Shown here: positions 3,728-35,713 of the stretch, piece by piece
Layout: every line of letters starts with the position of its first letter
How positions within the stretch are numbered: the stretch's first letter is position 1
Source: Bacteroidales bacterium UBA6397
GTDB lineage: Bacteria > Bacteroidota > Bacteroidia > Bacteroidales > UBA932
DNA: 64,000 nt
Direction: 5' to 3'
Assembly (NCBI GenBank): GCA_002439875.1
Contig: DJQB01000036.1
Location: 139,079 to 203,078 of the forward strand
Made by a program: the position numbers and the translations under genes
Notes under the pieces: generated by a model
The model's database searches: none
What the model was told of the DNA's origin: nothing
Seen by the model: the letters and a program-made list of their open reading frames with translations, nothing else

Positions 3728-3745
3728 AATGTACTCTTTTATATC

Positions 3746-3833
3746 GTATCGCATTTGTATTGCGAATGTGTTTACAAAGAAACAACTTTCCGGACAAATA
3801 ATCAAGACTTCCCGCTGACTTTCACTTCGTTCG
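3746..3833 (-). repeat. 88-bp repeat, copy 1; it contains 30-bp element copy 1 at 3746..3775
   Basis: 3767..3833 matches 9751..9817 at 64 of 67 positions. The plus strand at 3746..3775 reads GTATCGCATTTGTATTGCGAATGTGTTTAC. Confidence 0.85.
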
Positions 3834-5014: not shown

Positions 5015-8000
5015 TTATCCACCGTAAGTGCTCCTGCGTTTGGCACGATTGTACTTCTCCGTCTGCTCGATGATTCCGTTCTTGCCAAGCATCGACACAT
5101 CCGCCTTGATAGGCACGGAAAGCCTTTTGTTCAGCAGCTCGATAGCCTCCAGCAATTTCTCATCGGTCGCAGATCTTCCCGAAGCGACATTTCCACTACT
5201 CACAGAGCCGCTTCCGGTCACTGAGCTTGTCGAAGTGCCCGTGAACCCACCGCTTTCCCGACCGATGGCCGCACCCACCGGATAGACCGCCTCGAAGTTC
5301 AGGCTCTTCAACGTCCCTGCCTTCCGCGCTTCCTCCATCGTGGCCACAAACGGCAACAACGTCGGATTGCGCAACCCGTCAGCCGGAATCACATATTCCC
5401 CGCCATTCTCACCCACAAGCACGGTAGGGGAGGACACGAACCCTCTCTTGTCAGGAGACAGCCGCGCCTTGAACGCCTTGCCGTCCTGCGCCCTGCGAGT
5501 GTTCACGAAACCACCCTCTTCCGCACCGGTAGTGATAGGCTGGGCTGCTATCAATGCCGTTTGGGCCGCACCGAATGCCGCTACCATAGCGGCTGGAGCA
5601 GCACCAGCCGGCCATCCCCATTGCGCCAATGTCTTTGTGACCGACAAAGCCGTGTTGATTATGGCTTGCACAAGATTGAGGGCTTTCGTCCTCTTTGCCT
5701 GTTTAATCTCCATCTCCTCACGTTTGGCTTCCTCCTCGGCTTCCATCTCCTCGACCCTTGCGTTGTACTGCTCCTGAGACACCAATCCGGCATCATATCG
5801 TGATTTCAGATCCTTCTTTTTCTTCTCGTTGTTCTTCTTGTACTCATTGAACGCCTTGTTTTCCTTGGCGTTGGTAAGTTCGATCGCCTTACTTGCCAGC
5901 TGGAAGCCTTCCTGTGCAATCCCTCCCATTCCGGTCAAGGCATTCGCCAGATCTTCCGCTTTAAGCCTGCCATCAGACAGATTCGCAAAGAACTGATCCC
6001 ATTGCTCCTGCGACACGCCGAACAGGCTTCCTTTCCCTGTACCTGCGAAAGCCCCTGCTGTATCCTCTTTCTGTTTGTTCTTGAGTTCCGTGATCTTCTC
6101 GATAGTCTGCTGGAGTTGCAGTTTGTATTTCTGCAAGTCTTCTTCAGGAATCAGCCCACCGTCAAATTCTTTGCTTGTTGTGATCTTCTCCAGTTCTGTT
6201 TTGAGGTTCTCCAAGTACTCAAGGTCAGAAGACACCAACGCTGAGTTCATAGACCTTTGCAAGGAAGATTTTTCTACAGACGGACCTGCCGGCAAATCAA
6301 GCATTTGTCCGGAATAATCGTTCTGAATCTTCAACTTCTTAACCTCGTGTTCTGACTTAAGTCTTGCCATCTCCTTCGCCTCCGCATCCATCCGGATCTT
6401 CATCAGATTGTTCTGATGCTTCTTCTCGATAGCCTCCAACACCGCTGCATGATTCTCGTACAGAACCTGCGTCTCCTTGAACTTCTTGAGTTCCGCTTGA
6501 TACCGTGCCTCTTCACCGGCCATCGCAGCCTTGGTCTTGTCAGTCTCCACCTCGTTGATGATGGCCGTTCCCTCCTTGCTCAGTTCAGCGGCCTTCTTCT
6601 CGTTCTCCTGCTGCTTCTTCAACGCATCCTCCGAATGTTTCTTGATCTTCTCCTGCAACTCATTCTCGATCTTGGCCCTGTCTGCACCCTTCTCCTTATG
6701 AGCCGCCAGCCGAGCCGTCAGCGTCGCCACCTCCAGCTGGTAAATCCTCTCATCATATTCCTCCTGCGAAGCAATCTCCTTCTCATTGTACTGCCGCGTC
6801 AGTTCCGCCTTAGCCTTCAAGAACGCCTCATCATTGCTCAATGACCACTGCTTGTTGCTGCCAATTGGCGTGGTAGGCGTTGGTGTAGTACTTGGATTTG
6901 TGTTCGTTTCGGCAGGAGCAGTGACCGTTGATTGAGTCCCTTCATCGGTAGGATTCTCGTACTTCGATGCCGCCAAATTGAAGCCCTCCAAGGCATTCCG
7001 CTGGATGTCAAGTTTGTCCTTGCTATAGTGCCACCAACGACTGAATCCGCTTTGGCTGTCGTATGTGGATTGAGCTCTCTCCAGACCCATCTCGTAAACA
7101 CCCCTTTTGAATTCAATATGCGATTTCAGCTTTTCCAAATCGCCATCGTAGTATTTGAGCATCTTCTCCAAGTGCTCAGAAGACTCCTTGTAGAAACTTT
7201 GCTTTGATCCGGAAGACACCAGATCAGAAGTCTTCTCAATCAATTTCGTTAGCCAATCAATCACTTCTTTGATCGGTCCAGTTGATTCCTTGAACGACAA
7301 AATCAACCCCTCCCAAGCCGATTGCAACAGTTTGACAGAACCCTCGACCGTGTTGATTCTCTCCTCAGCGGTATTCTTCAGTACTCCGTTGACATCGTCC
7401 AACGAGTCTCGGAGATTCATAGCCGCGTCCGCACCATCCAAGAACGTGTTGAAGGCAGAAACCGACCTCTTGTCCGTCAGTTCCAACGTGGTGTTAAGGT
7501 CAACTCCTTGTGCCTTCAACGTCTTGAGACCGTCCATCAGTTCAGGGAACGTGCTCACAGGCTTACCCAAAGCGACCGCAAGCTTGCCACTCGAATCGGC
7601 AAGGTTCAACAGAATATTCCTTGTGGCCGTGGCCGCTGATGAAGCGTCAAAGCCAGCATTGGCCAATGTTCCGAGCAACGCCACCGTGTCCCGCAGCGAG
7701 AATCCGAAAGTCTTTGCCACCGGTCCGACCGTGGCCATAGCTGTCTGGTAGTACGTGAAACCGAGCGCGCTGTTGTTGGCTCCCTGAACGAGTACACCAA
7801 GAGTGTCTGCCGTGTCCTTGGCGTCAAGCCCGAACATCCTCAGAGTGGCTCCTGCCATGGCTGCCGCTTCCGGAAGAGTGGTCCCGATGGCCGTGGCGAA
7901 ATGCAGAACAGATTCCTGCATGTCCATGATGGAGTTCTCCTTGAAACCCAGCTTGGCAAGTTCCGTCTGGAGGAGCGTGACCTGCGAGGCGGTATATTCA

Positions 8001-9720: not shown

Positions 9721-9729
9721 AATTCCTTC

Positions 9730-9817
9730 GTATTGCGTTTGTATAGCGTTTGTGTTTACAAAGAAACAACTTTCCGGCCAAATAATCAAGACTTCCCGCT
9801 GATTTTCACTTTGTTCG
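9730..9817 (-). repeat. 88-bp repeat, copy 2; it contains 30-bp element copy 2 at 9730..9759
   Basis: The plus strand at 9730..9759 reads GTATTGCGTTTGTATAGCGTTTGTGTTTAC. It lies 9 nt upstream of the DUF4065 gene ATG. Confidence 0.85.
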
Positions 9818-24007: not shown

Positions 24008-24082
24008 TTTATTTTAGTTATCGCTAAATTTTTTGCAAATATCGTCATTCTTTCCTTAACATCCAACCATTTCCCGAAAAAG

Positions 24083-24112
24083 GTATTGCTTTTGTATTGC
24101 GAATGAGTTTAC
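24083..24112 (-). promoter_or_regulatory. Conserved 30-bp element, copy 3
   Basis: The plus strand reads GTATTGCTTTTGTATTGCGAATGAGTTTAC. It sits directly after the terminator T-run and 75 nt upstream of the toxin ATG. Confidence 0.6.
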
Positions 24113-24141
24113 GAAAAAGCGGCACCCGAAAGGATGCCGCT
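24113..24141 (-). terminator. Rho-independent terminator after the DUF5053-like gene
   Basis: Hairpin AGCGGCA-N10-TGCCGCT followed on the minus strand by TTTTTC. Confidence 0.75.
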
Positions 24142-25022: not shown

Positions 25023-28000
25023 CACTTCTCCCAAGGTTCGGCTTCAGTCGATTCAGCGGACTCAGTGACCGGTGGGGGAGTGCTGGCCGCGGTGCGGTTG
25101 TCCCCGATTTCCAGCGTGTCGGTGGAGATGTCCAGATCGATGCCATAGTTGACCTTGAGCGCGTCATAGTCAAAGACCATCGCGGTGGTCACACGGCTCT
25201 TGCCTGTCTCAGGATTGCTCGACACATAGGTCTTGTTCTCCAGCAGCTTGAACCGCATCGACTTGGCCGTCCCGATGAACTCAGGCGAATGCTCAAGATA
25301 GTACTTCAGCGAATCCCTCGGAATCACCTTGCCGTTCACGTCCTTGCCCTCCTTCATGTAGAGGGCCGAAAGCCGCTGGAACGCCAGATAGATGTACCGC
25401 ACACCGTGTTTGGGCTCGAACGGAACATCCGATTCCTTGATGGCGAACGGACGGTCCCCGGCGCAAAGCTTATAGTCGATGTTGATGTACGCCTGCCCGG
25501 ATGCCACCAGATTCTCCACAATCTCCCAGAATCCAGAAAGCTCGTTGTTCTGCTTGGTCTTCTGATTCTGGTCCACGCAACCCTTGCAGCAAAGCTTGAA
25601 CATCTCCTCGCTGTCAAACGGCACATCGATGTCCGTCCTCAAAGTCCTATAGGCGGCCAGCAGGATAGCCCAGTTCCTCAGGGTCCTGTCCTCGACATTG
25701 TACGACCGCACTCTGTCATTCATGTCCGACAACGTCTCATCCCACACCCTCCTGAAATCCGTCTGGAACTTGGAGCGCAACTGCAACAACTGGTTCGTCA
25801 GATGCGTAAGCCCGCGCTTCTCGACAAGCTTCAGATTCTCGTAGTTCCTCTTCTCCTGATCACTGAACGTGGTCTTGCTGAACGTCAGGAACACAAGGCG
25901 GTTGAACAGGGCTATGTCAGCGGTCGGCATCTCCTGACCGCTCATCACGACCCCGCAGTCCACAGCTGTGGTCTCACGTCTCTTGTCATTGTCCATATTC
26001 ATCCTCGAACGCCCCGCACCGTCCCATATTCCCTTCAGGAACTCCCTCTTCTCAAGGTCAAGGTTGTTCTTATATTCATCAAGATGCACCACCGCGTTGC
26101 TGACTTCCGCCACAGCCTCGGCAAGAGCCGCCTTGGTCGTGTTGTTGATGTTTGGCGCGATGTTGTTGCTGACAAAGAATGATGTAAGCGAATGTCCCAG
26201 CTCCGACTTTCCCGTGCCTTTCGGACCGAACAGATCCAGAATGGGAAAGGAGGTCGTCACTGATGTCACCACATCCTTGAACAGCGAAGCGAACAGGAAG
26301 CAAAGCGCCACCTTGGCGTTGTCCCCGAACACTGTGATGAGCTTCTCTGAATATTCCCGAAGCGTGATGGTGTTGGTCTCCGTGTAGACGAACTTCCTTG
26401 CCAGCTGGTAGCCTTGGGTGTTGTCCCTTGTGTCCAGCGCGCAACCAGGAAGATAGAACTTCTGCCCCTTGATGTCGATGATTCCGTACTTGTCCACCGG
26501 CTTGAACGTGCCGTTGTCAAGGCCGCCGTTGCCCCAAGCGTAGAAGCCCCACTTCTTCTGCCAACCCAGCTGCTTGATCTCATCAGCCGAAGGGGTTCCG
26601 TCATAGAGGAACTTCTTCAGTGAGGTAAGCTCGTTGGCCGTGGCCTCCCACACATAGTTCCCCGCTGTCTCGACCCTCGTCTTGAAATCCGTGAACGACA
26701 CAAGCTCGCTTTGGTTCAACTTCACCACCGCCTCCTGCATCTTGACGTTCCGCAGCGTGAATATTCTCCGAGCGTTCTTCTCATCCCGGATGTGGAGGAT
26801 CGGAGTCATCGTGAAATTGCTCCACCTCATGTCGTTCCCGGATCTTGAAGCTCCATAGTAGCAGTTGTTCTTGACGTAGAAGCCATAGTTCTGGAGCATC
26901 TCCTTAGTGCCGTCCTCCTTGGCCTCCGCACGCTCCTGATCATTCTTGGCCTTGAAATATTCCTGGTTCCAGATCTTCCCGAACTTGTAGGTCTTCGTGA
27001 AGGTCTCCCTGTACATGTCAGCCGAACTCTGATCCGGCACCTTGGCCAGCAGCTTGCAGACCTCGGTGATCACGGCTGCCTTCTCTGTCTGGGACGTGGC
27101 CGCGTCCATCCATTTCTTGCAGATCCAAGGAATATAATCGTTCGTCCTTTGGAGGTTGCATTCATCGAACTCGTGCTGGTGCGTCCGGAAAAACTCATCG
27201 GCATCCTTGCCAAGTTCAGCGGGCAACTCCATCACACTGACCGAAAGACCGGCCTCCGTCATCAGCTTTGCGTTCTTCTGCACTGCCTCGACTCCGGCCT
27301 TGTCGGTGTCCCCTATGATTGTGACCCTTTCAGCCCTTGTTTTCAGAAGGTCGATTTGTTCCTGAGTCAATGCCGTGCCGCAAGGAGCCACCGCGTTCTT
27401 GACTCCGATCTCGTGCAAGCGACAAACATCCAGATTGCCCTCGACAAGGTAAGCCTGCTTGGTGGCGTAGATCTGCATATTCGCCTGAAGCCACCCGAAA
27501 AGGATTCCCTTCTTCCTGTACAGCTCCGTCTCCCCGGTGTTCAAGTACTTGGGAACACCCGGTTTGTCACCGATGTAGCGTCCGGAAAACCCTGCGATGT
27601 AGCCGCTTGCCCAGAAGACCGGGAACATAATCCTGTGTCTGAACGAGTCATAGACCTGCCCGGTGTCCTCGTTCCTCTTGACCAGTCCTGCCGCAAGCAG
27701 CACGTCCTCCTTCCAGCCAAGCCCCGTCAGATACTGTTTCAGCCCACCCTTTTCAGGAGCGTAGCCTATGCCGAACAGTTCAGCGGTCTCGACCTTGATC
27801 CCGCGCTTCTTAAGGACATATTCCTTGGCGCCAGGCGACTCCTTGTACCGCTGGATGAACCACTCGGAGGCCAGCTTGTTCACTGTCATCAGCTGTGACC
27901 GCCTGAACTCCGCAGCCTTCTCTTCCGGTGTCGGCTCCTTCTTCTCGTAGTCGATTCCCAACCGCCCGGCAAGATGCTCCACGGCCTCGTAGAACGTCAT

Positions 28001-28228
28001 TCCGCGTCTCTCCATCACAAAGCTGATGGCGTCTCCGGTACGTCCGCACCCGAAGCAGTGGTACATGTTCCTCGAAGGCGTCACCACGAACGAAGGTGTC
28101 TTCTCTCCGTGGAAAGGGCAACAGCATTTGTAGTGGCTGCCTTCCCGCTTGAGCTCCACGCCCTCGTCCTGGATGATCGAGACGATGTCCCGCTCCTTGA
28201 TCTGGTCTTTTACATAGTCGGGAATCAT
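25022..28228 (-). CDS. DNA primase-helicase fusion: CHC2 zinc finger, TOPRIM, and a C-terminal P-loop NTPase
   Basis: CHC2 motif CCCPFHGEKTPSFVV...YHCFGCG. TOPRIM motifs LVEGNLDV and IIGDTDKAG. Walker A motif FGPKGTGKSE. Confidence 0.85.
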   Translation of the reverse strand: MIPDYVKDQIKERDIVSIIQDEGVELKREGSHYKCCCPFHGEKTPSFVVTPSRNMYHCFGCGRTGDAISFVMERRGMTFYEAVEHLAGRLGIDYEKKEPTPEEKAAEFRRSQLMTVNKLASEWFIQRYKESPGAKEYVLKKRGIKVETAELFGIGYAPEKGGLKQYLTGLGWKEDVLLAAGLVKRNEDTGQVYDSFRHRIMFPVFWASGYIAGFSGRYIGDKPGVPKYLNTGETELYRKKGILFGWLQANMQIYATKQAYLVEGNLDVCRLHEIGVKNAVAPCGTALTQEQIDLLKTRAERVTIIGDTDKAGVEAVQKNAKLMTEAGLSVSVMELPAELGKDADEFFRTHQHEFDECNLQRTNDYIPWICKKWMDAATSQTEKAAVITEVCKLLAKVPDQSSADMYRETFTKTYKFGKIWNQEYFKAKNDQERAEAKEDGTKEMLQNYGFYVKNNCYYGASRSGNDMRWSNFTMTPILHIRDEKNARRIFTLRNVKMQEAVVKLNQSELVSFTDFKTRVETAGNYVWEATANELTSLKKFLYDGTPSADEIKQLGWQKKWGFYAWGNGGLDNGTFKPVDKYGIIDIKGQKFYLPGCALDTRDNTQGYQLARKFVYTETNTITLREYSEKLITVFGDNAKVALCFLFASLFKDVVTSVTTSFPILDLFGPKGTGKSELGHSLTSFFVSNNIAPNINNTTKAALAEAVAEVSNAVVHLDEYKNNLDLEKREFLKGIWDGAGRSRMNMDNDKRRETTAVDCGVVMSGQEMPTADIALFNRLVFLTFSKTTFSDQEKRNYENLKLVEKRGLTHLTNQLLQLRSKFQTDFRRVWDETLSDMNDRVRSYNVEDRTLRNWAILLAAYRTLRTDIDVPFDSEEMFKLCCKGCVDQNQKTKQNNELSGFWEIVENLVASGQAYINIDYKLCAGDRPFAIKESDVPFEPKHGVRYIYLAFQRLSALYMKEGKDVNGKVIPRDSLKYYLEHSPEFIGTAKSMRFKLLENKTYVSSNPETGKSRVTTAMVFDYDALKVNYGIDLDISTDTLEIGDNRTAASTPPPVTESAESTEAEPWEK

Positions 28229-28557
28229 AAGTTGAATATGTCTATTGCTTCACCGCTTTTCTTGTCGTTCTGAAGGAACGTCTCGAAACTTTCCCAGTGC
28301 GAATCATCGTCCACCCTCTCATTAGCCTGGTCGATCTCGAAAACCATCCTCCTTGCTATGCCGATGCATTGCTCAAGATGGCATTTCCGCTGAATCTCCC
28401 AAGTCTGCATCTGCATTGGCGCAAGCCCAGCGAACTCCATCAGTTGGACTTCCCAAAGCTGCACCGCCATCTGGCATGCCCCGCGAAGTGCCGACCATTC
28501 CGGCCTGTTCATCTCGAACACCGAGACCAGGCCTCTTGAATCCTTGTCCGCGTACAT
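28225..28557 (-). CDS. Phage hypothetical protein (110 aa)
   Basis: ORF with a 4-nt overlap onto the primase start. Confidence 0.55.
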   Translation of the reverse strand: MYADKDSRGLVSVFEMNRPEWSALRGACQMAVQLWEVQLMEFAGLAPMQMQTWEIQRKCHLEQCIGIARRMVFEIDQANERVDDDSHWESFETFLQNDKKSGEAIDIFNL

Positions 28558-28560
28558 GGC

Positions 28561-28812
28561 CTAACCCTTTTCCGGAAACAACTCATTCACGGAAGCCTCT
28601 ATCCCGAAAACATCTTTCACGTACTTCCTGATGTTCTCCTGATAGAGCGGCTTTGGCCGCCTTGTCCCGTTGCACCATGAATATGCCGTCGGGTACGACA
28701 CCCCGTCCATCACGATCAACGTCAGCATCTCATTCCGCTGTTTAAGGCCCGCGGTCTCCCAAATCCTCTTGATGTCCATTGTATGAATATTATTGTTTAT
28801 TATTTCGTCCAT
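28561..28812 (-). CDS. Small putative DNA-binding protein (83 aa)
   Basis: ORF with an HTH-like segment LIVMDGVSYPTAYSWCNGTRRP. Confidence 0.5.
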   Translation of the reverse strand: MDEIINNNIHTMDIKRIWETAGLKQRNEMLTLIVMDGVSYPTAYSWCNGTRRPKPLYQENIRKYVKDVFGIEASVNELFPEKG

Positions 28813-29080
28813 CCTTAGGTGTTATGAAGTCCAGTGTCAATTCATCTATCAGTAACGCAGCCTCGTCACCAAAATATTCGCTTACCGCCTCTGATAGCGA
28901 CATACCTTCATCTTCATAATCGCCAACCATTTTGTGCAGCCATTTGTCGAACTTCACGATGTCAATTATCACGCAGCCAGCCCATAGGCTCGGTAAAGGG
29001 TCGTAAAACTCTGATACCCCTGTCTGGAAGCACTCGAATAATTTATCTTTGAGTGCTTTGTTGTCACCCAATTTCTGCAT
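28790..29080 (-). CDS. Acidic phage hypothetical protein (96 aa)
   Basis: ORF downstream of the recombinase gene. Confidence 0.5.
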   Translation of the reverse strand: MQKLGDNKALKDKLFECFQTGVSEFYDPLPSLWAGCVIIDIVKFDKWLHKMVGDYEDEGMSLSEAVSEYFGDEAALLIDELTLDFITPKDGRNNKQ

Positions 29081-29084
29081 CAGA

Positions 29085-30002
29085 TTACTTCTCTTTCTCG
29101 TAATTCTTCTTTGCTCGCTTATGCCCGTGAGCCCTGTAAAGTATGTTTAGTTCCTTTTCTTGGCTTATGCGTTCGTAGACCTCGTCATAGGTGTAATCTG
29201 GAAACTCTTGGGCTATGATAGGGATTGTCTTGTCTTCCAATATTAACTCCTTTAATCTCTCTCGCGATATCTCGAAAATTCGCGGAGAATCGCACTTTTG
29301 GTGTTTATTATATTTTATCCGGGCTCTTTCCCTCTCCCTTCTCATCCTTTCCTCCTTTTTCTCCCTAGCATCTTCGATTTTGCCTCTATACTCGCCCCAG
29401 TCTATTATGTAATTCCTGATGGTTCCTCTGTCAACCTTGAATAATTTTTCCATTCTTCTCAGAGGCATTCCCTCCCTGTAGTTTTCCAGAATCAGTTCTT
29501 TGTATTTGTTCATTCTGGACTCCACTTTGACTTTTCTACTAGGACCATCCGCATAAGCCCTTCCCATCAGTACGCCCATTTTCCGTCTCAATTCCAGCCC
29601 TTCTTTTGTTCTCTGCCTGATCATCTGTCTCTCTATTTCCGCAGAAAGTCCAAAGGCGAACGCAAGTACCTTGCTTTGAATACTTTCGCCCAATGTAAAC
29701 CCGTCTTTCACCGTGTAGATTGTTGCCTCTCTTGCCATGCAAAAGTGGAGTATATCCATCACCATATACAGATCACGCCCGAGGCGGCTGATCTCGCTGC
29801 AAATTATGATGTCTCCCTTTTGGATTTTTTTTAGCATCGGCCCAAGATTTCTCTTGTTCGGATCTTTGCCTCCAGACACCCCCTTATCGGAAATATACTT
29901 TTCGATTGTCCACCCTTTTGCAGCTGCGAACGCATCCACTCCCTGCCTTTGGCTGTTGACATCCTGCTCATCGGATGATACTCTCAGATAACCGTAAATC
30001 AT
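29085..30002 (-). CDS. Small serine recombinase (resolvase/invertase type) with an extended C terminus
   Basis: The N-terminal catalytic motif is MIYGYLRVSSDEQD ... CSEISRLGRD ... ERQMIRQRTKEG. An HTH-like segment MPLRRMEKLFKVDRGTIRNYI follows. At 305 aa it is too short for a large serine integrase. Confidence 0.85.
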   Translation of the reverse strand: MIYGYLRVSSDEQDVNSQRQGVDAFAAAKGWTIEKYISDKGVSGGKDPNKRNLGPMLKKIQKGDIIICSEISRLGRDLYMVMDILHFCMAREATIYTVKDGFTLGESIQSKVLAFAFGLSAEIERQMIRQRTKEGLELRRKMGVLMGRAYADGPSRKVKVESRMNKYKELILENYREGMPLRRMEKLFKVDRGTIRNYIIDWGEYRGKIEDAREKKEERMRRERERARIKYNKHQKCDSPRIFEISRERLKELILEDKTIPIIAQEFPDYTYDEVYERISQEKELNILYRAHGHKRAKKNYEKEK

Positions 30003-30079
30003 AATCTTTATTATTTGATAATCAGCGAAATAAATTAAAAATTTCTTGAAAAATAGTTGTGTAATTCAAAATAAATGCG

Positions 30080-30087
30080 TACCTTTG
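30080..30087 (+). promoter_or_regulatory. Candidate -7 box (TACCTTTG) of a Bacteroidota-type promoter
   Basis: Matches TAnnTTTG and points toward 30302..30520. The -33 region is only approximate (TTGT). Confidence 0.4.
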
Positions 30088-30150
30088 TAATGCGGTTCAG
30101 GGAGAACCGCGAAAGAGGAATCTGAAACGCTTGAAAGGGAGTAAGAAAAA

Positions 30151-30279
30151 ACCTACCAAAGTCTTAGAAAAGATGAGCGCTAAATTCACTTTTAAGATTT
30201 GGAAACTGAGATTCACGATCGAGATCGCAATCTAGTTTTGCCAACGGAGGCTGAGAGACCAGCCTCCCCTTTGGTAGGT
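30151..30279. repeat. 129-bp segment bounded by perfect 11-bp inverted repeats; candidate invertible element or structured leader
   Basis: ACCTACCAAAG at 30151..30161 pairs with CTTTGGTAGGT at 30269..30279. Inside are a 20-codon uORF (30173..30235), a TAGTTTTG box (30233..30240) and the hairpin GGAGGCTG-N6-CAGCCTCC. Confidence 0.6.
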
Positions 30280-30301
30280 GCTGCAAAAATACACAAATTG
30301 T

Positions 30302-30520
30302 ATGCAAAACAAAAATCTGTCATCTTCACAGACTCCTTCCGAGTCTCCGTCCTGGGGCGGTGCCCGTTCCGGTGCCGGCCGCAAGTCCAAGCCCCACGGA
30401 AAATCCTACACCTTCCAGTCCACCCCAGAGGTTGACGCGTTTCTCTCCTCCTATCAAGGCAATAAGACCGAGTTCATCAACCGCGCGATCCTGACCCTTG
30501 CCGGTGAGTCTCCCGAATGA
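30302..30520 (+). CDS. Small basic DNA-binding protein, possibly ribbon-helix-helix (72 aa)
   Basis: ATG at 30302 (MQNKNLSS...). Contains the motif WGGARSGAGRKSKPHGK and a C-terminal FLSSYQGNKTEFINRAILTL. Confidence 0.55.
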   Translation: MQNKNLSSSQTPSESPSWGGARSGAGRKSKPHGKSYTFQSTPEVDAFLSSYQGNKTEFINRAILTLAGESPE

Positions 30521-30659
30521 CCTCGATCTCCCATCTGTCCGACCTCTTGGCCGCAAGTTCAGCGAACTTTTCCCGTGCTTTCTCTTCGGTGTCGTAGTAC
30601 CATTCATCTACGATACCGAAGCATCTTGCCATAACGACAAATCTGACTTTTCCGTCCAT
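30477..30659 (-). CDS. Hypothetical small protein (60 aa)
   Basis: ATG at 30659 (MDGKVRFVVMARCFGIVDEWYYD). It overlaps 30302..30520 convergently by 44 nt and no promoter was seen. Confidence 0.3.
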   Translation of the reverse strand: MDGKVRFVVMARCFGIVDEWYYDTEEKAREKFAELAAKRSDRWEIEVIRETHRQGSGSRG

Positions 30660-30660
30660 A

Positions 30661-30708
30661 ACACAATAAATTAAGCGGCAACTCCAAAACACTGGAATTG
30701 CCGCTTAA
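30661..30708 (-). terminator. Terminator after the GHKL-STAS operon
   Basis: Hairpin TTAAGCGGCA-N18-TGCCGCTTAA followed on the minus strand by TTTATTGTGT. The loop is large. Confidence 0.55.
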
Positions 30709-30727
30709 TTGCAAAGATTATCTGTCC

Positions 30728-31021
30728 TTAGCTTGCAGAAGTATCGAACCTCTTAACGTAGTCTCTGATGTGAGCTATTTGGCTGGCGGAAATATTGCTG
30801 AATGCGATTTTTTGGCGAACGATTTCCGCACCTTTTTCACCGATGATCTTTCCAATAGACGTATTCAAAAACATTGATGGAACAAGTGTCACATCTTTGA
30901 AATCCAAAATGATTCTGTCCTGCTTGTCAAGATTATCATTTAGTATAGAGTATAACACGTCACCCGCATCGGGGTAATTCCTACCCTGAAATATAGCTGA
31001 AACTGAAATGCGATAATCCAT
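30728..31021 (-). CDS. STAS-like protein (DUF4325-like)
   Basis: 97 aa. The pattern ILDFKDVTLVPSMFLNTSIGKII is typical of DUF4325/STAS as I recall it. It starts 1 nt after the ATPase stop. Confidence 0.6.
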   Translation of the reverse strand: MDYRISVSAIFQGRNYPDAGDVLYSILNDNLDKQDRIILDFKDVTLVPSMFLNTSIGKIIGEKGAEIVRQKIAFSNISASQIAHIRDYVKRFDTSAS

Positions 31022-31022
31022 A

Positions 31023-31904
31023 TTATAAAAGTGTTAAATCGTCTTCGATATAATTGTCTTCCAAGTGTTCAAGAGAAATTGAATACATTATCAATGTTCC
31101 CTTGAAGTGTCTCTTTAATCTTACAGACCTATCGTTATCCCCTGATGTTACCAAAGCCCCATCGTTGCTTATTATCCAAAGGGAATCGGGGTCAGTGCAA
31201 TAATCACGAAGATTCCCCAGCCCCAAACCAGCATTGTGATTGGTGGATCTGATAGTGAATCGAGGCTCCATGGCTTTCTTTATTGCTTGAACGTCATCCG
31301 TTATTTCTGGCAGCACCGTTCTTACGGATTCGGCAATACCACGGCCAAAGTCGCATACGGAAATGAAAACCTTGTTGATTCTCCTGTCATATTCAACCAT
31401 GGAGAAGGCAACTCCTTCACATAAAGAATGGTCGATGACATTGTAATACGCCTCTGTTAAACTGCCTTCAAGTGGAGTCAGGTCTTTAGCCTGAAACTTG
31501 GTGGTCCGGAAATATTCACTTATCCGTTTGGCGTGCATTTCCATCCCGTCCGCTTCAATCTTCCATAAGTTCAGAATGTCATCGTTGCCTGGTTTTACAT
31601 AGTCTTCATGCAAATTCCAGTATCTTGATATTCCGAGCTCATTTTCAAGATAGCCTTTGATTTCTTTGCTCGTTTCCAACTGGACGTGGCAACCTTTTCG
31701 CGCGCAAGATTCAATCAGACATGCAAGGGATGTGATGTGTTCTGGACGTAATTTGTCTCGTGTAATGTCATTGCTGATATTTACCACCAAATGGTTGACG
31801 CCTTTCTGTTCGATCATATATCTTCCATCGCAAATTCCGGCAAGCCAACTAAGCCTGTCGGCTGATGACAGTATTACTACTCTTATATTTGCGACTTTAA
31901 GCAT
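31023..31904 (-). CDS. GHKL-superfamily ATPase / anti-sigma-type serine kinase-like protein with an unknown N-terminal domain
   Basis: N-box EAYYNVIDHS, G1 box VCDFGRGI and G2 box NAGLGLGN. ATG at 31904; the ORF track starts at the GTG at 31910. Confidence 0.75.
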   Translation of the reverse strand: MLKVANIRVVILSSADRLSWLAGICDGRYMIEQKGVNHLVVNISNDITRDKLRPEHITSLACLIESCARKGCHVQLETSKEIKGYLENELGISRYWNLHEDYVKPGNDDILNLWKIEADGMEMHAKRISEYFRTTKFQAKDLTPLEGSLTEAYYNVIDHSLCEGVAFSMVEYDRRINKVFISVCDFGRGIAESVRTVLPEITDDVQAIKKAMEPRFTIRSTNHNAGLGLGNLRDYCTDPDSLWIISNDGALVTSGDNDRSVRLKRHFKGTLIMYSISLEHLEDNYIEDDLTLL

Positions 31905-31925
31905 AGACACATAACCTTTTCAGAG

Positions 31926-31960
31926 CAAAGATAATCTTTAGAAAATCATTTTCCAAACAA
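31926..31960 (-). promoter_or_regulatory. Bacteroidota sigma-A type promoter for the GHKL-STAS operon
   Basis: The minus strand reads TTTG-N20-TATCTTTG. The -7 box is at 31926..31933, about 20 nt upstream of the ATG. Confidence 0.65.
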
Positions 31961-31983
31961 TGTTTCTGTGATGCTCTTTTATC

Positions 31984-32000
31984 TTAACGGCAATTCCAGT
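31984..32000. repeat. Right inverted repeat flanking the GHKL-STAS cassette; its partner is at 30691..30708
   Basis: The reverse complement, ACTGGAATTGCCGTTAA, matches ACTGGAATTGCCGCTTAA at 30691..30708 (17 of 18, with a 1-nt indel). Confidence 0.6.
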
Positions 32001-32021
32001 ATTTCAAAGAACCTGTTTTCG

Positions 32022-32149
32022 TCCCCGGGAACGGAATCGAACCGCTCACATCGCGCTAGGCTTTCGGGGCGGCCCCCGCCCTCCTGGGCTTAAATCCTAC
32101 GCAAGGCCGCTTCGTGCTGGCAGGGACCCATATCCTGCCCTTTCCGGGG
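32022..32149 (-). ncRNA. tRNA-like structured RNA B (128 nt, non-canonical)
   Basis: Read on the minus strand. The ends CCCCGGA and CCCGGGG pair at 6 of 7 positions. The T arm is AGCGG-TTCGATT-CCGTT. A D-like hairpin GGCAGG-ATATGGGTC-CCTGCC is present. About 70 nt of GC-rich branched helices replace the anticodon arm. Confidence 0.4.
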
Positions 32150-32260
32150 AGTTGCCGGTCTTTCCCGGCTGTCAAACAAACTTATTATCTCAACACTACT
32201 AAACACACAGTCTTTCACCGCCCGGCGCTCCTTGACACCGTAATTGAAATTAAACTGAGA

Positions 32261-32351
32261 TCCCGTGCCGGACTCGAACCGGAATGAGTAATTAATCTGA
32301 TTTATGACTAATCGGTATTTTGCCTGCCGCTCCCCACGGAGCCACACGGGA
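32261..32351 (-). ncRNA. tRNA-like RNA A (91 nt, non-canonical)
   Basis: Read on the minus strand. The acceptor is TCCCGTG/CACGGGA (7 bp, extendable to 8). The D arm is GCTC-CGTGGG-GAGC and the T arm is CCGG-TTCGAGT-CCGG. Forty-six AT-rich nt lie between the D and T arms, so no clean anticodon arm forms. Confidence 0.45.
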
Positions 32352-32428
32352 TTGTTCACGCCTCACAGCGTTACGCTTGGCCTCTCAGGACCTCTTGTGA
32401 TAGGTTTGCCAAGACTATTTTATTGCTT

Positions 32429-32518
32429 TTACTCTTCATCATCCTCCTTGAACGCCCGCCAGTACAGCCAGACCACGAACGCCAGCATGACACCTTCAAC
32501 AATGAGATGTATCGACAT
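32429..32518 (-). CDS. Possible 29-aa single-TM peptide
   Basis: My own translation gives MSIHLIVEGVMLAFVVWLYWRAFKEDDEE. It is below the ORF-track size cutoff and overlaps the end of 32496..32822. Confidence 0.3.
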   Translation of the reverse strand: MSIHLIVEGVMLAFVVWLYWRAFKEDDEE

Positions 32519-32822
32519 ATCCTATAACATCCTCCTCAAGTATTTTCTCAAAATCCTTCAATATCTTTTTCCAGTCCCACTTGTTCGGAGCCAGCCTCGC
32601 CAATCTTGGCCCATCGAGCATCCAAGCGCCTTCCGCGCACTCCCAAGCCGCAAGACACTGCTCCAGTCTGTCAGCGATGAATTTCCTCGCAAGCGGCCTG
32701 ATGTCTTCGCCCATCTGCGCCTTGTGCCAAAGCCCGACAATGTTAACCCCTGCATCCAGATAGTGTTTCGCCATCAAATCGATGAACTTGTCCCTGTTGA
32801 CATCATATTTCTCCATAGCCAA
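32496..32822 (-). CDS. Phage hypothetical protein (108 aa)
   Basis: ORF in the leftward early operon. Confidence 0.55.
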   Translation of the reverse strand: MAMEKYDVNRDKFIDLMAKHYLDAGVNIVGLWHKAQMGEDIRPLARKFIADRLEQCLAAWECAEGAWMLDGPRLARLAPNKWDWKKILKDFEKILEEDVIGYVDTSHC

Positions 32823-32872
32823 TGAATATTAGTGATGTTGTCTCCCGTCCCAATCGTGTGTGATGACTCCCA

Positions 32873-33142
32873 TCAGCATCCACGCGTCCGGATTGTTTTC
32901 CGGACTGAGAAGCCACGCCATCGCATCCTTATAAGCCTTGCGCCAGCTGATAGTCTTCGGAGCCAGTCTGCGCACGCACCCATCGTGTACGCAATCATCA
33001 GTGTCCCCAAGTGCCACCACGCGAACTCCGCTTTCCCTGCAATCGCCTGCACCGCGTTCACCATCAACGCCACCGCCACCACAACCGCGAACACCCTCCA
33101 GATGCCCACCGTGGTCCTCTCCATTCTTTCTTCTTCGCTCAT
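32873..33142 (-). CDS. Small membrane protein, first gene of the leftward early operon; possibly frameshifted
   Basis: N-terminal TM helix VGIWRVFAVVVAVALMVNAVQA. The overlapping frame 32829..33149 has a more protein-like C terminus (TISWRKAYKDAMAWLLSPENNPDAWMLMGVITHDW). Confidence 0.5.
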   Translation of the reverse strand: MSEEERMERTTVGIWRVFAVVVAVALMVNAVQAIAGKAEFAWWHLGTLMIAYTMGACADWLRRLSAGARLIRMRWRGFSVRKTIRTRGC

Positions 33143-33192
33143 AACTCATTGTTTTTGTGATATTTTATTGTTATCTTCGCTCATTTAATGCT

Positions 33193-33222
33193 GTATTGCA
33201 TTTGTATTGCGTTTGTGTTTAC
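33193..33222 (-). promoter_or_regulatory. Conserved 30-bp element, copy 4
   Basis: The plus strand reads GTATTGCATTTGTATTGCGTTTGTGTTTAC. It begins 4 nt downstream of the -7 box of the leftward promoter. Confidence 0.65.
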
Positions 33223-33226
33223 ACTG

Positions 33227-33257
33227 CAAATATAGAGAAGTCTCTGTAATATTCAAA
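33227..33257 (-). promoter_or_regulatory. Leftward early promoter (Bacteroidota consensus)
   Basis: The minus strand reads TTTG (33254..33257), N19, then TATATTTG (33227..33234). Confidence 0.65.
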
Positions 33258-33309
33258 GAATTTTGCAGAAAGATTTCTAATTATTTTAACGCAAAAATTG
33301 CATTGAATT

Positions 33310-33756
33310 ATGACACAAGGTGTTAAGGAAAGACTGATTACTTTTTTGAAGAATGAGGGTTTGTCGCAGGCTAAGTTTGAGCGCATCTGTGGCTTTTCCA
33401 ATGGTTATGTAAACAACATTCGTAACGGTATCGGAGCTGATAAGTTGCAGACTATTCTCTGTAAATTCCCAGCATTGAACGCCAACTGGCTTGTCAATGG
33501 AGAAGGTGAAATGTCTACTCCATCACAGAGAGCAGGGGATAATAGTGTCGTTATTGGCAGCCATAATCACCATGGCTCTTTCAACATCGATAACCGCCAA
33601 TATTATTCCGACAGCCCCGATGTCCTCAGAGCCCAAATCGAACTACTCGACGAACGCATCAAGGAGAAGGACGCCCAGATCAAGGAGAAGGACGCCCAGA
33701 TCAAGGAGAAGGACGCCCAGATAAACCGTCTCCTCTCCATCCTCGAAAAGCAATAA
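33310..33756 (+). CDS. cI-like HTH repressor with a C-terminal coiled coil
   Basis: HTH motif LSQAKFERICGFSNGYVNNIRNG and the NWLVNGEGEM motif common in Bacteroidota phage repressors. It is divergent from the early operon. Confidence 0.7.
   Translation: MTQGVKERLITFLKNEGLSQAKFERICGFSNGYVNNIRNGIGADKLQTILCKFPALNANWLVNGEGEMSTPSQRAGDNSVVIGSHNHHGSFNIDNRQYYSDSPDVLRAQIELLDERIKEKDAQIKEKDAQIKEKDAQINRLLSILEKQ
33658..33720 (+). repeat. Perfect 21-bp tandem repeat, three copies, inside the repressor gene
   Basis: ATCAAGGAGAAGGACGCCCAG occurs three times and encodes IKEKDAQ x3. Confidence 0.95.
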
Positions 33757-33949
33757 GAAAGGGCGCACCTCCCGGCGTGGCCTTTCCCTTACCATTAAAT
33801 CATTAGGATTATAAGAAAGTCTATAGTCCAAGTTTAGGAATCAACACTAATTTTAACTGTTATGAGTAAAGAAAATTATCAAACGAAGAAAGCTCCTGCA
33901 GGGCCTCCACCGCCACCTCCATCGAGCAGTGACCCGAAGATCCACGGCA

Positions 33950-34549
33950 TCAGACCAGCATCGCCTCCACTGCCAGAGAAAAAAGGATGATGCAAGCGAA
34001 TGCAGCCGCCCAAAGACTGATGTTGACGCCTATCCGGTAACACTTCCTTATCCGCAGGGCGATACGGAGGTTTCTATTGGCACAATCCTGCAATCGGATC
34101 AGCTCCTGGTACTTCTTACACACCACCCAATTCTTGTCTTTGTAGTTGTCGAGCCAATCGACTGTTTCCAGTGTAAGAAAATCAGCTGGAGCGGATCCCG
34201 GACCGTAAGAAGTCACATTGTACATTGATCCCTTCCAGAAGCAGATGATGACCACCGAGATGAATACAATGCCATAGCACGTGAGCGACAATGAAAGCGT
34301 CGAAGGTGCTGATGCGGCCACGAGCCCGGCAAGGATGCCGATCAGGGAGATGTCAGCAGCGACATACCATCCGAGGAACGTCTGGACAATCCCCATTGTG
34401 TGGCTGATTGTCTGTGTGCTGAATTCCAGCTTCCTTTTCCCCGCCTCGTAGGCAAGGTTGATGATTTCCGGAGTCAGCCTGTCCATCGGGATGTCGAATG
34501 TCTTCTCCTCGAAGACCTGCTTGGCTGTGTTTTCTTTATGCTTGAACAT
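33950..34549 (-). CDS. Multi-pass membrane protein, convergent with the repressor gene
   Basis: ATG at 34549 (MFKHKENTAKQVF), with about 4 predicted TM helices. Confidence 0.6.
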   Translation of the reverse strand: MFKHKENTAKQVFEEKTFDIPMDRLTPEIINLAYEAGKRKLEFSTQTISHTMGIVQTFLGWYVAADISLIGILAGLVAASAPSTLSLSLTCYGIVFISVVIICFWKGSMYNVTSYGPGSAPADFLTLETVDWLDNYKDKNWVVCKKYQELIRLQDCANRNLRIALRIRKCYRIGVNISLWAAAFACIILFSLAVEAMLV

Positions 34550-34705
34550 ACCTCTGTTGTTTTTTGCAAATATAATAAATCCAATGTAGTAAACCTTATC
34601 GTTTATCAATAAATCGAAATTAAAATTTCGGTCAAAATTAATTAAAATTTCTAAAATTATCGTTGTAAGTAATTGTTTAATAAAATTTTAAGTGGACGTG
34701 TGCCA

Positions 34706-34727
34706 GGACAAAAACGGGACAAAAACT
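34706..34727. repeat. Tandem 11-bp repeat GGACAAAAACG, two copies
   Basis: GGACAAAAACG is followed by GGACAAAAACT. Confidence 0.8.
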
Positions 34728-34866
34728 TTTAGTAAATCGTTTTATGAGCAAAAAGCCGAAATTGATTACCAAGGACTTAAAAAGTTTAGAACCCGACAGA
34801 GCAATCCTGTATCCTCCGCAAAATCGCTGTAATGAACTAATAGACAATATTTTACGGGATTTTTCC

Positions 34867-34898
34867 GAGAAAAACGGGACAAAAACGGGACAAGATTT
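34867..34898. repeat. Tandem 11-bp repeat of the same family, about three copies
   Basis: Reads GAGAAAAACG GGACAAAAACG GGACAAGATTT. Confidence 0.75.
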
Positions 34899-35016
34899 TT
34901 CCTTGTATGATGCGCTCAGCGCATTGTGCAAAGAAAAAAAAATTGTGTTAACGCCACCGATTCCATACATAGATTTCATTCCTCCGAAGCTCTCAAGGCC
35001 GTTGACATTATAGATT

Positions 35017-35042
35017 AAAAAAGCCCCGGATTGCTCCGGGGC
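35017..35042 (-). terminator. Rho-independent terminator after the 63-aa HTH gene
   Basis: Hairpin GCCCCGG-N6-CCGGGGC followed on the minus strand by TTTTTT. Confidence 0.75.
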
Positions 35043-35072
35043 CGTGCGGCTATGCGCTTTTGCTGTCAAACA

Positions 35073-35264
35073 TTAAGAGATAGCCGATAATTCTTTTGCG
35101 ATGGTGTGGATGCCGTCCACAATTTTCGCCCTCATAGCCGGACGCGGCTTACGATAGCCGTTGGCATAGTGGGTCAGTTGTTGTTGGTTGATTCCGGTCA
35201 CTTTGGCGATGGCCGATTTCGGCACCAATTTTTCTGTATAGTGAAGAAGAGCCGCGGTGGTCAT
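35073..35264 (-). CDS. Small HTH DNA-binding protein (63 aa)
   Basis: HTH motif SAIAKVTGINQQQLTHYANGYRKP. Confidence 0.65.
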   Translation of the reverse strand: MTTAALLHYTEKLVPKSAIAKVTGINQQQLTHYANGYRKPRPAMRAKIVDGIHTIAKELSAIS

Positions 35265-35515
35265 ACTCCATTCAAACTCCCATTCACCGTCAAATTCAGC
35301 TGGGCAGTCGGATTGTGCAACCCGTCAGCCGGAATCAAATATTCCCCTCCATTTTCACCCACAAGCACGGTAGGGGAGGACACGAACCCTCTCTTGTCCG
35401 GAGACAGCCGCACCTTGAACGCCTTCCCCATAACCGCCTGCACCGCGTTCACCATCAACGCCACAGCCACCACAACCGCAAACACCCTCCGGATGCCCAC
35501 CGTGGTACTCTCCAT
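35261..35515 (-). CDS. Chimeric membrane-anchored protein: an early-operon TM leader fused to a tape-measure fragment
   Basis: The protein reads MESTTVGIRRVFAVVVAVALMVNAVQAVMGKAFKVRLSPDKRGFVSSPTVLVGENGGEYLIPADGLHNPT.... At the DNA level 35308..35429 matches 5361..5482 (115 of 122), and 35431..35635 matches 33041..33225. Confidence 0.55.
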   Translation of the reverse strand: MESTTVGIRRVFAVVVAVALMVNAVQAVMGKAFKVRLSPDKRGFVSSPTVLVGENGGEYLIPADGLHNPTAQLNLTVNGSLNGV

Positions 35516-35713
35516 CCAGTATGATAACCCACGACAGCTCACCTATAACTCATTTGTTTTCTGAATATTTTATTACTAAATTCGCATTAAATGTTGCTGT
35601 GTGGCATCTGTAATGTTTGAGTTTAACGTTTACAGTTTATTATATGTTAGACAATAATAAACTTGTTTTTATATGTTGGAACTTCCTCCGCTTCCGCTGA
35701 TCAATAGCATGTT

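Follow-up and report, generated by a model that had tools for sequence, protein, structure and literature searches.

GHKL kinases paired with STAS proteins have been described as portable sensors of DNA damage or infection that are wired to various outputs. The kinase CapK (HTH–STAS–GHKL, where HTH denotes a helix-turn-helix domain) is switched on by single-stranded DNA (ssDNA) and, upon binding it, phosphorylates the conserved acceptor Ser54 of CapS (STAS followed by a winged HTH, wHTH), which de-represses adjacent immune operons such as CBASS, Bub, Thoeris and similar operons. In VapKSC, VapK (STAS–GHKL) phosphorylates Ser48 of VapS, a protein of 116 amino acids (aa) whose C-terminal helix (residues 94-116) inhibits the PIN toxin VapC, and VapC is thereby released. 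The aromatic residues that stack on ssDNA are Phe54 in VapK and Trp68 in CapK, both kinases respond to DNA damage, the VapKSC operon confers about 2-log protection against phage Bas42, and complete vapKSC operons are present in Bacteroidota, for example in Flavobacterium and Prevotella communis (Dataset EV3; Chambers et al., EMBO J 2026, PMC13373217). Here we analyse a two-gene cassette, K-S, in a stretch of 64,000 nucleotides (nt) from Bacteroidales bacterium UBA6397 (contig DJQB01000036.1, positions 139,079 to 203,078; henceforth ‘the window’, from whose first letter all coordinates are counted). The cassette lies on the minus strand, within a prophage, and encodes a predicted 293-aa GHKL kinase, K (31023..31904, with its ATG at 31904), followed by a 97-aa single-domain STAS-like protein of the DUF4325 family, S (30728..31021), which resembles VapS and CapS. 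We consider it probable (roughly 60%) that K-S is a prophage moron and, within the CapK/CapS–VapK/VapS superfamily, an autonomous phospho-switch made up of a kinase and its substrate; that its output is defence-like or toxin–antitoxin-like is a tentative proposition.

An earlier note, made from the letters of the window, had delimited both genes as above with a single nucleotide between them and had placed GHKL motifs in the C-terminal half of K, and both observations were confirmed. The N-box (EAYYNVIDHS; E151, N155 and H159), the G1 box (CDFGRGI; D185, G187 and G189) and the G2 box (NAGLGLGN; N224, G226 and G228) are invariant in an alignment of 40 homologues that reaches down to 26% identity, and these motifs are kept in 78 intact homologues. 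Matches to general profiles were faint (Pfam HATPase_c, E 0.015, and HATPase_c_2, E 0.043, both sub-threshold; NCBIfam SpoIIAB, 2e-4 with 21 bits against a cutoff of 135 bits) and a search of the PDB with the K sequence yielded nothing but noise; K matched phrog_3364, a phage family of unassigned function, over nearly its full length (7.6e-31). The AlphaFold2 model of K is confident (predicted local distance difference test 87.5, predicted template modelling score 0.89), and the top PDB matches of this model in Foldseek were the SpoIIAB structures 1l0o, 1til, 1tid and 1th8 (E 2e-6 to 1e-4; template modelling (TM) score 0.63-0.69 on target), the best of them with E 2e-6, probability 1.0 and a TM score of 0.69 on target. 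These matches and the motifs assign 31023..31484 (minus strand) to a GHKL kinase domain with the Bergerat fold of SpoIIAB type, and the models and the alignment assign 31485..31904, about residues 1-140, to an alpha/beta domain of sensor type with the order b-a-b-a-b-a.

The earlier note had recognised no motif in the approximately 140 residues that precede the GHKL boxes, and this part of its description has to be replaced. We transcribed VapK residues 1-286 from the AlphaFold 3 cif model of its authors and used them for comparisons: when a 40-sequence K profile was aligned with VapK by hhalign, the two matched with a probability of 98.8% (E 9e-17) over 222 columns, from K 35-272 to VapK 40-284. 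Because this alignment spans the N-terminal domain, from K residue 35, as well as the kinase domain, and includes an LRP motif before helix 2 that both proteins have in common, we place the N-terminal residues of K as the counterpart of the VapK sensor domain. VapK also matches phrog_3364 over nearly its full length (1.8e-37). Within the N-terminal domain of K, residues L60, A61, C62, E65, Y95 and L113 are invariant and W20, H56, W96 and N112 nearly so. Overall, K is predicted from its sequence and model to be a catalytically intact GHKL serine kinase of SpoIIAB type with a VapK-like N-terminal sensor domain.

The assignment of S to the STAS-like DUF4325 family, also made in the earlier note, is borne out by a Pfam match above the gathering score (4.8e-12), and VapS is a member of the same family (6.3e-18). 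The sole PDB match of S was chain A of 9z7o, ‘Escherichia VapS’ (phmmer 6e-5). Ser49 of S (codon TCA, 30875..30877, minus strand), which lies in the motif VPSMFLNTSIG and is the predicted phospho-acceptor, aligns with Ser66 of this chain, that is, with VapS Ser48 after an 18-residue tag, if the tag length is taken from the difference between 134 and 116 residues. The position is invariant in 17 diverse S homologues and is occupied by serine in 75 and by threonine in 5 of 80 homologues from species-representative genomes. A word-indexed search with S found close relatives only, and distant S sequences were drawn from loci at which K homologues occur. The median length of S homologues is 96 aa, and the C-terminus of S coincides with the end of its STAS domain.

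At least 133 species-representative genomes in GTDB, nearly all of Bacteroidota, carry a relative of K, and we compared the neighbourhoods of 80 loci fetched from this set. Whether the two genes co-occur, a check proposed in the earlier note, has a clear answer: S, detected like K by its profile, lies directly downstream on the same strand of all 78 intact K genes, with gaps of -20 to +138 nt. Clustering of the open reading frames (ORFs) within 6 kb revealed no family besides K and S in more than 4 of the 80 loci, and only 11 of them have the gene after S within 100 nt and on the same strand, this gene being unrelated from case to case. A sigma factor or a PP2C phosphatase, the absence of which had been remarked upon at the locus in the window, was likewise absent beside K-S in all 80 loci. 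Owing to this obligate adjacency and the lack of any recurrent further family, K-S is a self-contained two-gene unit with no conserved third gene.

The layout of the cassette is consistent with this. The stop codon of K (TAA) is separated by 1 nt from the ATG of S, and, since S starts so close to the end of K, the two genes are probably translationally coupled. A promoter of housekeeping type, read from the sequence at 31926..31960 (minus strand), comprises a -33 element TTTG, a spacer of 20 nt and a -7 element TATCTTTG, 21 nt downstream of which lies the ATG of K; we take TTTG-N20-TATCTTTG to match the -33/-7 promoter consensus of Bacteroides. The cassettes of sister prophages carry the same element. 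An intrinsic terminator hairpin at 30669..30710 (minus strand) consists of a 19-bp stem and a T-rich tail, with a folding free energy of -28.6 kcal/mol (z = -9 versus shuffles). The view of the earlier note that the pair is served by a promoter and a terminator of its own is therefore upheld in the window, and the tendency extends to the family: TAnnTTTG occurs within 150 nt upstream in 48% of 73 homologous loci versus 10.6% of random windows from the same loci, and a strong hairpin follows S in 58% of homologous loci versus 30% of random windows. Both enrichments support the autonomy of K-S. The cassette also differs in composition from the primase region of the prophage (G+C 0.39-0.44 versus 0.53-0.58). 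When the window and 31900-32500 were searched against Rfam, no family matched the cassette or the G+C-rich stretch upstream of it.

We next turn to the boundaries of the cassette. The inverted repeats reported to bracket it are real: arms of 17 nt at 30687-30703 and 31988-32004 are complementary at 16 of 17 positions, approximately 0.03 such pairs are expected by chance in 4.5 kb by our own estimate, and sister prophages have the arms at the same positions. The left arm coincides with the 3' half of the terminator stem. The right arm belongs to a border element at 31984..32004 (neither strand assigned; ACTGGAATTGCCGTTAA on the gene strand), whose orientation is inverted with respect to the 5' arm of the terminator and direct with respect to the 3' arm. 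Metagenome contigs were scanned for the upstream arm plus a short flank and every phage-type match was read onward; together with the loci obtained earlier, this yielded 33 related loci from assembled contigs, 3 of which were cut short or held unclassified cargo. Nineteen loci contained an intact cassette, all oriented as in the window, 7 carried a deletion of the kinase gene, and 5, together with one truncated contig, contained a different cargo; no empty slot was found among the contigs recovered. This alternative cargo (L029, L034, L038, L058 and L063) encodes an 80-aa protein without a family match and a 190-aa retropepsin-like aspartic protease (Pfam Asp_protease_2 and gag-asp_proteas, with a C-terminal SEC-C motif), has a TAnnTTTG promoter of its own and is enclosed by the upstream arm and the terminator hairpin that also enclose K-S, the hairpin being the downstream border; PADLOC returned only weak matches of its SEC-C region to E2-like models. 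The two types of cargo diverge immediately after ...ACTGGAATTGCCGTTA (...GCCGTTA) and the sequence upstream is conserved. Since cargo identity breaks right after the upstream arm, the repeat arms mark the borders of an exchangeable cargo slot and not an inversion switch. With its own promoter and terminator, its deviating composition and its replacement between otherwise collinear phages, K-S is a prophage moron, in keeping with its first description as a phage-borne module in the accessory arm of the prophage.

Directly upstream of the slot border, the stretch 32005-32360 (minus strand) is G+C-rich and non-coding, forms the left flank of the slot and is conserved in every sister prophage, has no Rfam match and contains two degenerate tRNA-like elements with canonical T-arms (GGTTCGAGTCC and GGTTCGATTCC). 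ARAGORN reports them at a relaxed threshold only, as ‘tRNA-Gly(acc)’ at 32259-32352, which adopts a cloverleaf fold with a long variable arm (z = -2.7), and as ‘tRNA-Pro(ggg)’ at 32021-32106, which does not (z = 0.35).

In the slot survey we also observed that the kinase gene can be lost while S is kept. In seven contigs (L019, L023, L040, L048, L051, L067 and L066) K is almost wholly deleted, by two independent deletions, with the promoter and S intact. Six of these, from different samples, share a deletion that reduces K to 13 codons, with a 9-nt overlap at the junction, and that retains the promoter, the junction TAATATG and an intact S; in the seventh the deletion arose independently and has other end points. 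The genome set seeded with K contains three further loci in which K is degraded and S is intact (L128, by a frameshift; L138, by internal deletions; L144, in which the N-terminal half is missing), which gives at least five independent deletions or degradations of K with S intact. Conversely, intact K without S was found neither in the genome set (0/78) nor in the slot loci (0/19). Such an asymmetry would be expected if K did harm in the absence of S, and it is only suggestive.

Relatives of K are numerous and are found in diverse genomic contexts. A profile search of 1.84 billion cluster representatives recovered 226 clusters (50% identity) with E<=1e-30 and 1,963 with E<=1e-10, mostly 280-300 aa in length and with a few extended at the N-terminus, and 38 IMG/VR contigs carry a relative. 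Against plasmids, tblastn with K gave three weak matches only, two in Hymenobacter and one in Bradyrhizobium. After the contexts of eight progressively more distant K homologues had been fetched, we could distinguish eight contexts for K-S, including an early region, structural modules, a prophage end, an integrase element and the chromosome alone. The early region is that of the prophage family of the window (P0012 alone occurs on hundreds of contigs); K-S lies inside structural modules of other phages in L007 and L013, at a prophage end beside an HTH repressor and a Gp49/HTH pair in L014, on the chromosome with no phage genes in L010, and on the chromosome beside an SNF2 helicase in L012. 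In L015 and L016 it is the main cargo of an integrase/excisionase element of about 7 kb. The L015 contig measures 12.8 kb with a repeat unit of about 7.1 kb that encodes an integrase, an excisionase-like HTH_17 protein, a few unknown genes and K-S; the assembly exceeds one unit length, which points to a circular or tandem form. Some chromosomal copies adjoin genes for GmrSD, an Eco57I-type methylase, Type ISP restriction-modification, ParD, Fic or RhuM. Outside Bacteroidota, a table on the gammaproteobacterial temperate phage KIRK of Francisella lists a 293-aa hypothetical protein (Fhv_0046) followed by a 112-aa DUF4325 protein (Fhv_0047) beside a CI repressor (PMC7924643), and this pair, compared by its description only, may be of the same kind as K-S.

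The phage that carries the cassette in the window is a temperate phage of a Rikenellaceae/Bacteroidales gut bacterium, with genes around the cassette for a tape measure protein, a head maturation protease, a small terminase and a 1068-aa DnaG-type primase. A gene at 33310..33756, which is divergent from the leftward early operon that holds the cassette and lies about 1.4 kb from the latter, encodes an HTH repressor-like protein with matches to an HTH domain and phage regulator PHROGs only and without an S24 peptidase. Within it, three tandem 21-nt repeats (33649-33725) encode KEKDAQI three times in the C-terminal coiled-coil of the protein. Upstream of phage transcription units we found four copies of a 40-nt motif (GTATTGCATTTGTATTGCGAATGTGTTTACA; 3737-3776, 9721-9760, 24074-24113 and 33184-33223), which are probably phage-specific promoter or operator elements; one copy sits where the repressor-like gene and the early operon diverge, and the cassette does not use the motif. 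At the prophage edge, a mosaic remnant (35307-35515) repeats part of the tape measure gene (35307-35428 corresponding to 5361-5482, 94%) and the start of a 106-aa early gene (35420-35515 corresponding to 33029-33124, 91%) and is probably the scar of an older related prophage or of recombination.

The serine recombinase that the earlier note had seen about 700 bp away is encoded at 29085..30002 (305 aa), 726 nt from the stop codon of S, and belongs to the Mpi-like invertase family, with a score (217.7 bits) below the family cutoff of 272 bits. It occupies a second and separate variable slot, between a 57-aa gene and a block of 72-aa, 105-aa and primase genes; elsewhere this slot holds a tyrosine integrase with a 186-aa gene (L001-L003), a 184-aa gene (L004, L006 and L024) or nothing (L005). 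We considered the recombinase as a part of the cassette and rejected this, as sister prophages without it retain the repeat. When 28000-35600 was compared with phages by blastn, the only match was a promoter-like stretch of 72 nt near the recombinase (30019-30090, plus strand; …TACCTTTG), which is about 80% identical to unannotated DNA near the ends of 16 phage genomes, those of Bacteroides ovatus, koreensis and kribbi phages. The stretch points to a leader of about 200 nt and a conserved ORF of 73-75 aa (30302..30520, plus strand), which is convergent with the 57-aa gene.

How might such a switch operate? In the resting state K and unphosphorylated S would hold each other, or S would hold a partner. 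An infection or DNA-damage cue, by analogy with CapK and VapK perhaps ssDNA, would bind the N-terminal domain of K, and activated K would phosphorylate S on Ser49, upon which phosphorylated S would let go; the switch would be one-way, because no phosphatase is encoded. Since there is no effector in cis and S has neither the tail of VapS nor the wHTH of CapS, the output would most likely be K itself, which after release would phosphorylate or sequester a protein of the host or of a phage in the manner of toxin–antitoxin or abortive-infection systems, and less likely a protein that is encoded elsewhere and acts in trans. In its strongest form this proposal holds that the two genes suffice as an abortive-infection or toxin–antitoxin system: K would be the effector, S a pseudo-substrate antidote, and phosphorylation of Ser49 upon infection would free K to act on an essential host or phage protein by phosphorylating or sequestering it. 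We regard this form as unlikely; if it were true, K would be the first GHKL-kinase toxin, and K-S would be a minimal form, widespread in gut Bacteroidota prophages, that is ancestral to VapKSC or derived from it.

Several other explanations of the cassette were weighed against an autonomous switch. The location of K-S in the leftward early operon, about 1.4 kb from a divergent repressor-like gene whose product has no self-cleaving peptidase domain, would suit a prophage induction sensor, in which K senses DNA damage as ssDNA and phosphorylated S frees or activates a phage factor, for example an antirepressor, thereby coupling an SOS-like state to the lysis–lysogeny switch; CapK and VapK do respond to DNA damage, and a comparable pair stands beside a repressor module in L014 and, by its description, in Francisella phage KIRK. 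However, K-S is also found in the structural modules of other phages, in the 7-kb integrase element (L015) and between housekeeping genes (L010 and L012), and no phage gene co-varies with it. Moreover, the slot of the very same prophage lineage can hold unrelated cargo or a K-deleted allele, and the phage life cycle is therefore independent of the cassette. We consider a role in induction improbable. A second possibility, that K-S is an anti-defence decoy aimed at VapKSC or CapKS of the host, with S as a surrogate substrate or sponge or with K pre-empting the S proteins of the host, draws on the presence of complete vapKSC operons in Bacteroidota (Flavobacterium and Prevotella communis; PMC13373217) and on the persistence of S-only alleles in prophages, which a decoy would permit. 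A sponge would need neither strict pairing of K with S nor intact catalytic motifs, though, many copies are chromosomal and outside phages, some of them beside restriction genes, and a promoter of its own within the prophage speaks for expression during lysogeny, which together make a decoy very improbable.

The closest solved structures to K are those of SpoIIAB, and the NCBIfam SpoIIAB profile does match K, if only at 21 versus 135 bits, as would be expected of an ordinary partner-switching regulator of a host sigma factor (of the RsbW/RsbV or SpoIIAB/SpoIIAA type) that sits in a prophage by chance. Given that no sigma factor or PP2C gene is adjacent in the 80 loci, that K has an additional sensor domain of 140 aa in common with VapK, and that the pair has a patchy and mobile distribution over prophages, IMG/VR contigs and an integrase element, we attach only a slight probability to this explanation. 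Even less credence can be given to an invertible, phase-variable cassette, in which an Mpi-like serine invertase would flip the segment between the inverted repeats and so switch expression. Such a cassette was suggested by the conserved 17-nt repeat that flanks the promoter and both genes and by the recombinase of the invertase family 726 nt away, and the inverted state would be recognised by the junction of ...GAAATACTGGAATTGCCG with CTTAATTGCAAAG. This junction was present in none of the 33 slot loci, which come from independent assemblies and 3 of which are cut short or hold unclassified cargo, and the 19 intact cassettes are all oriented alike with respect to their flanks, so that the repeat as an inversion switch was rejected and, of what the earlier note had read into it, the repeat stands and the implied link to an invertase does not. 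Inversion would in any case not switch expression, because the promoter lies within the segment; the left arm is one half of the terminator stem, and the repeat persists in sister prophages whose recombinase slot contains a tyrosine integrase, a 184-aa gene or nothing.

A number of results weigh against an autonomous phospho-switch with a defence-like output and are considered together here. Foldseek with the N-terminal domain of K against the PDB gave nothing significant (best E 0.02, MITD1), and the STAS assignment of this domain therefore rests on its homology to VapK; an hhalign comparison of the K and S profiles, which examined whether the N-terminal domain is a STAS paralogue of S, was negative (probability 0.5%). 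VapK Phe54 aligns with a variable, non-aromatic column of K (K51) and, as the stacking aromatic is not conserved, the trigger of K may differ from ssDNA. S has neither the inhibitory C-terminal helix of VapS nor the wHTH of CapS, so neither known output mechanism is applicable. The asymmetric loss of K is not statistically decisive, because K is three times longer than S and five losses to none have a p of about 0.24 under neutral hits (own calculation). K-deleted alleles persist in several samples, which indicates that K is dispensable for the prophage. No match to K was found by tblastn among cultured-phage genomes, and the defence genes that neighbour some chromosomal copies are anecdotes without a background control. 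Finally, PADLOC assigned no system: K gave only a weak match of its GHKL region to one DrmA model, which VapK matches too, and S gave nothing. The statement in the earlier note that it knew of no named anti-phage system with this composition needs revision, as named homologous relatives exist in VapK/VapS of VapKSC and in CapK/CapS.

An autonomous switch without a visible output, as we propose K-S to be, would mean either that K itself is the effector or that a host or phage protein is the target of the switch in trans, and either answer would extend the known logic of the CapKS and VapKSC systems. It would also provide a handle on the accessory functions of temperate phages of Bacteroidales, a dominant yet poorly characterised part of the gut virome, and the exchangeable slot of K-S with its fixed borders is a practical place in which to seek more cargo genes in this phage lineage.

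Comparison with described systems places K-S as follows. Its slot resembles the defence hotspots of P2 and P4 prophages, in which alternative small cassettes are reported to swap at a fixed position between conserved flanks (bioRxiv 10.1101/2021.01.21.427644): the position is fixed, the phage flanks are conserved and the cassettes are interchangeable. It differs from these in belonging to another phage lineage, of Bacteroidota, and in that only two types of cargo were seen, neither of which is a validated defence system. The kinase–kinase–phosphatase module (KKP) of Pseudomonas Pf prophages, which is reported to govern both lysogeny and anti-phage defence and to behave like a toxin–antitoxin system (PMC11341870), is likewise a prophage-encoded phosphorylation module. 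It offers a functional analogy for what the K-S moron could do; its Hanks-type Ser/Thr kinases and its phosphatase are unrelated to K and S and come without a STAS partner. The partner-switching architecture of SpoIIAB–SpoIIAA and RsbW–RsbV, to which the earlier note had compared the pair, is recognisable in the GHKL serine kinase boxes (E..N..H, DxGxG and GxG), in the best structural matches to SpoIIAB and in a STAS partner with a serine at the N-terminus of helix 2. Unlike those regulators, K-S comes with neither a sigma factor nor a PP2C phosphatase, K has an additional N-terminal sensor domain, and the context is mobile and phage-borne.

CapK/CapS have in common with K-S the logic of a kinase and a STAS substrate with a conserved acceptor serine, and a few relatives of K have the CapK architecture with an HTH: in L101 (146-1261), for example, a 371-aa homologue carries an N-terminal fusion to an XRE-type HTH (HTH_3, 3.4e-10), and its S partner is still a bare STAS domain. 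The K of the window, in contrast to CapK, has no HTH, and S, in contrast to CapS, matches DUF4325 only and has no wHTH, for which reason S cannot be a DNA-binding repressor; nor does an immune operon follow, as a strong terminator closes the cassette and the neighbours are unrelated between loci. Differences from VapKSC are of a similar kind. No VapC/PIN gene lies beside K-S in the window or in the 80 related loci, a result that comes from clustering of the neighbours of these loci and not from a dedicated PIN profile search of the whole window; S ends about 20 residues short of VapS, without the helix that inhibits VapC, and residues H56, C62, E65, Y95 and W96 of the N-terminal domain of K are not shared by VapK. 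K-S is nevertheless closest to this system, as K is homologous to VapK across both domains and falls in the same length class (293 versus about 290 aa), S is homologous to VapS and has with it a common S-x-F-(L/F)-N-x-S-I-G motif and acceptor serine, the order is K then S, and no phosphatase is encoded in either. Overall, K-S falls outside VapKSC and CapKS as these are defined, because it lacks their output features, and is an effector-less variant related to VapK/VapS and CapK/CapS.

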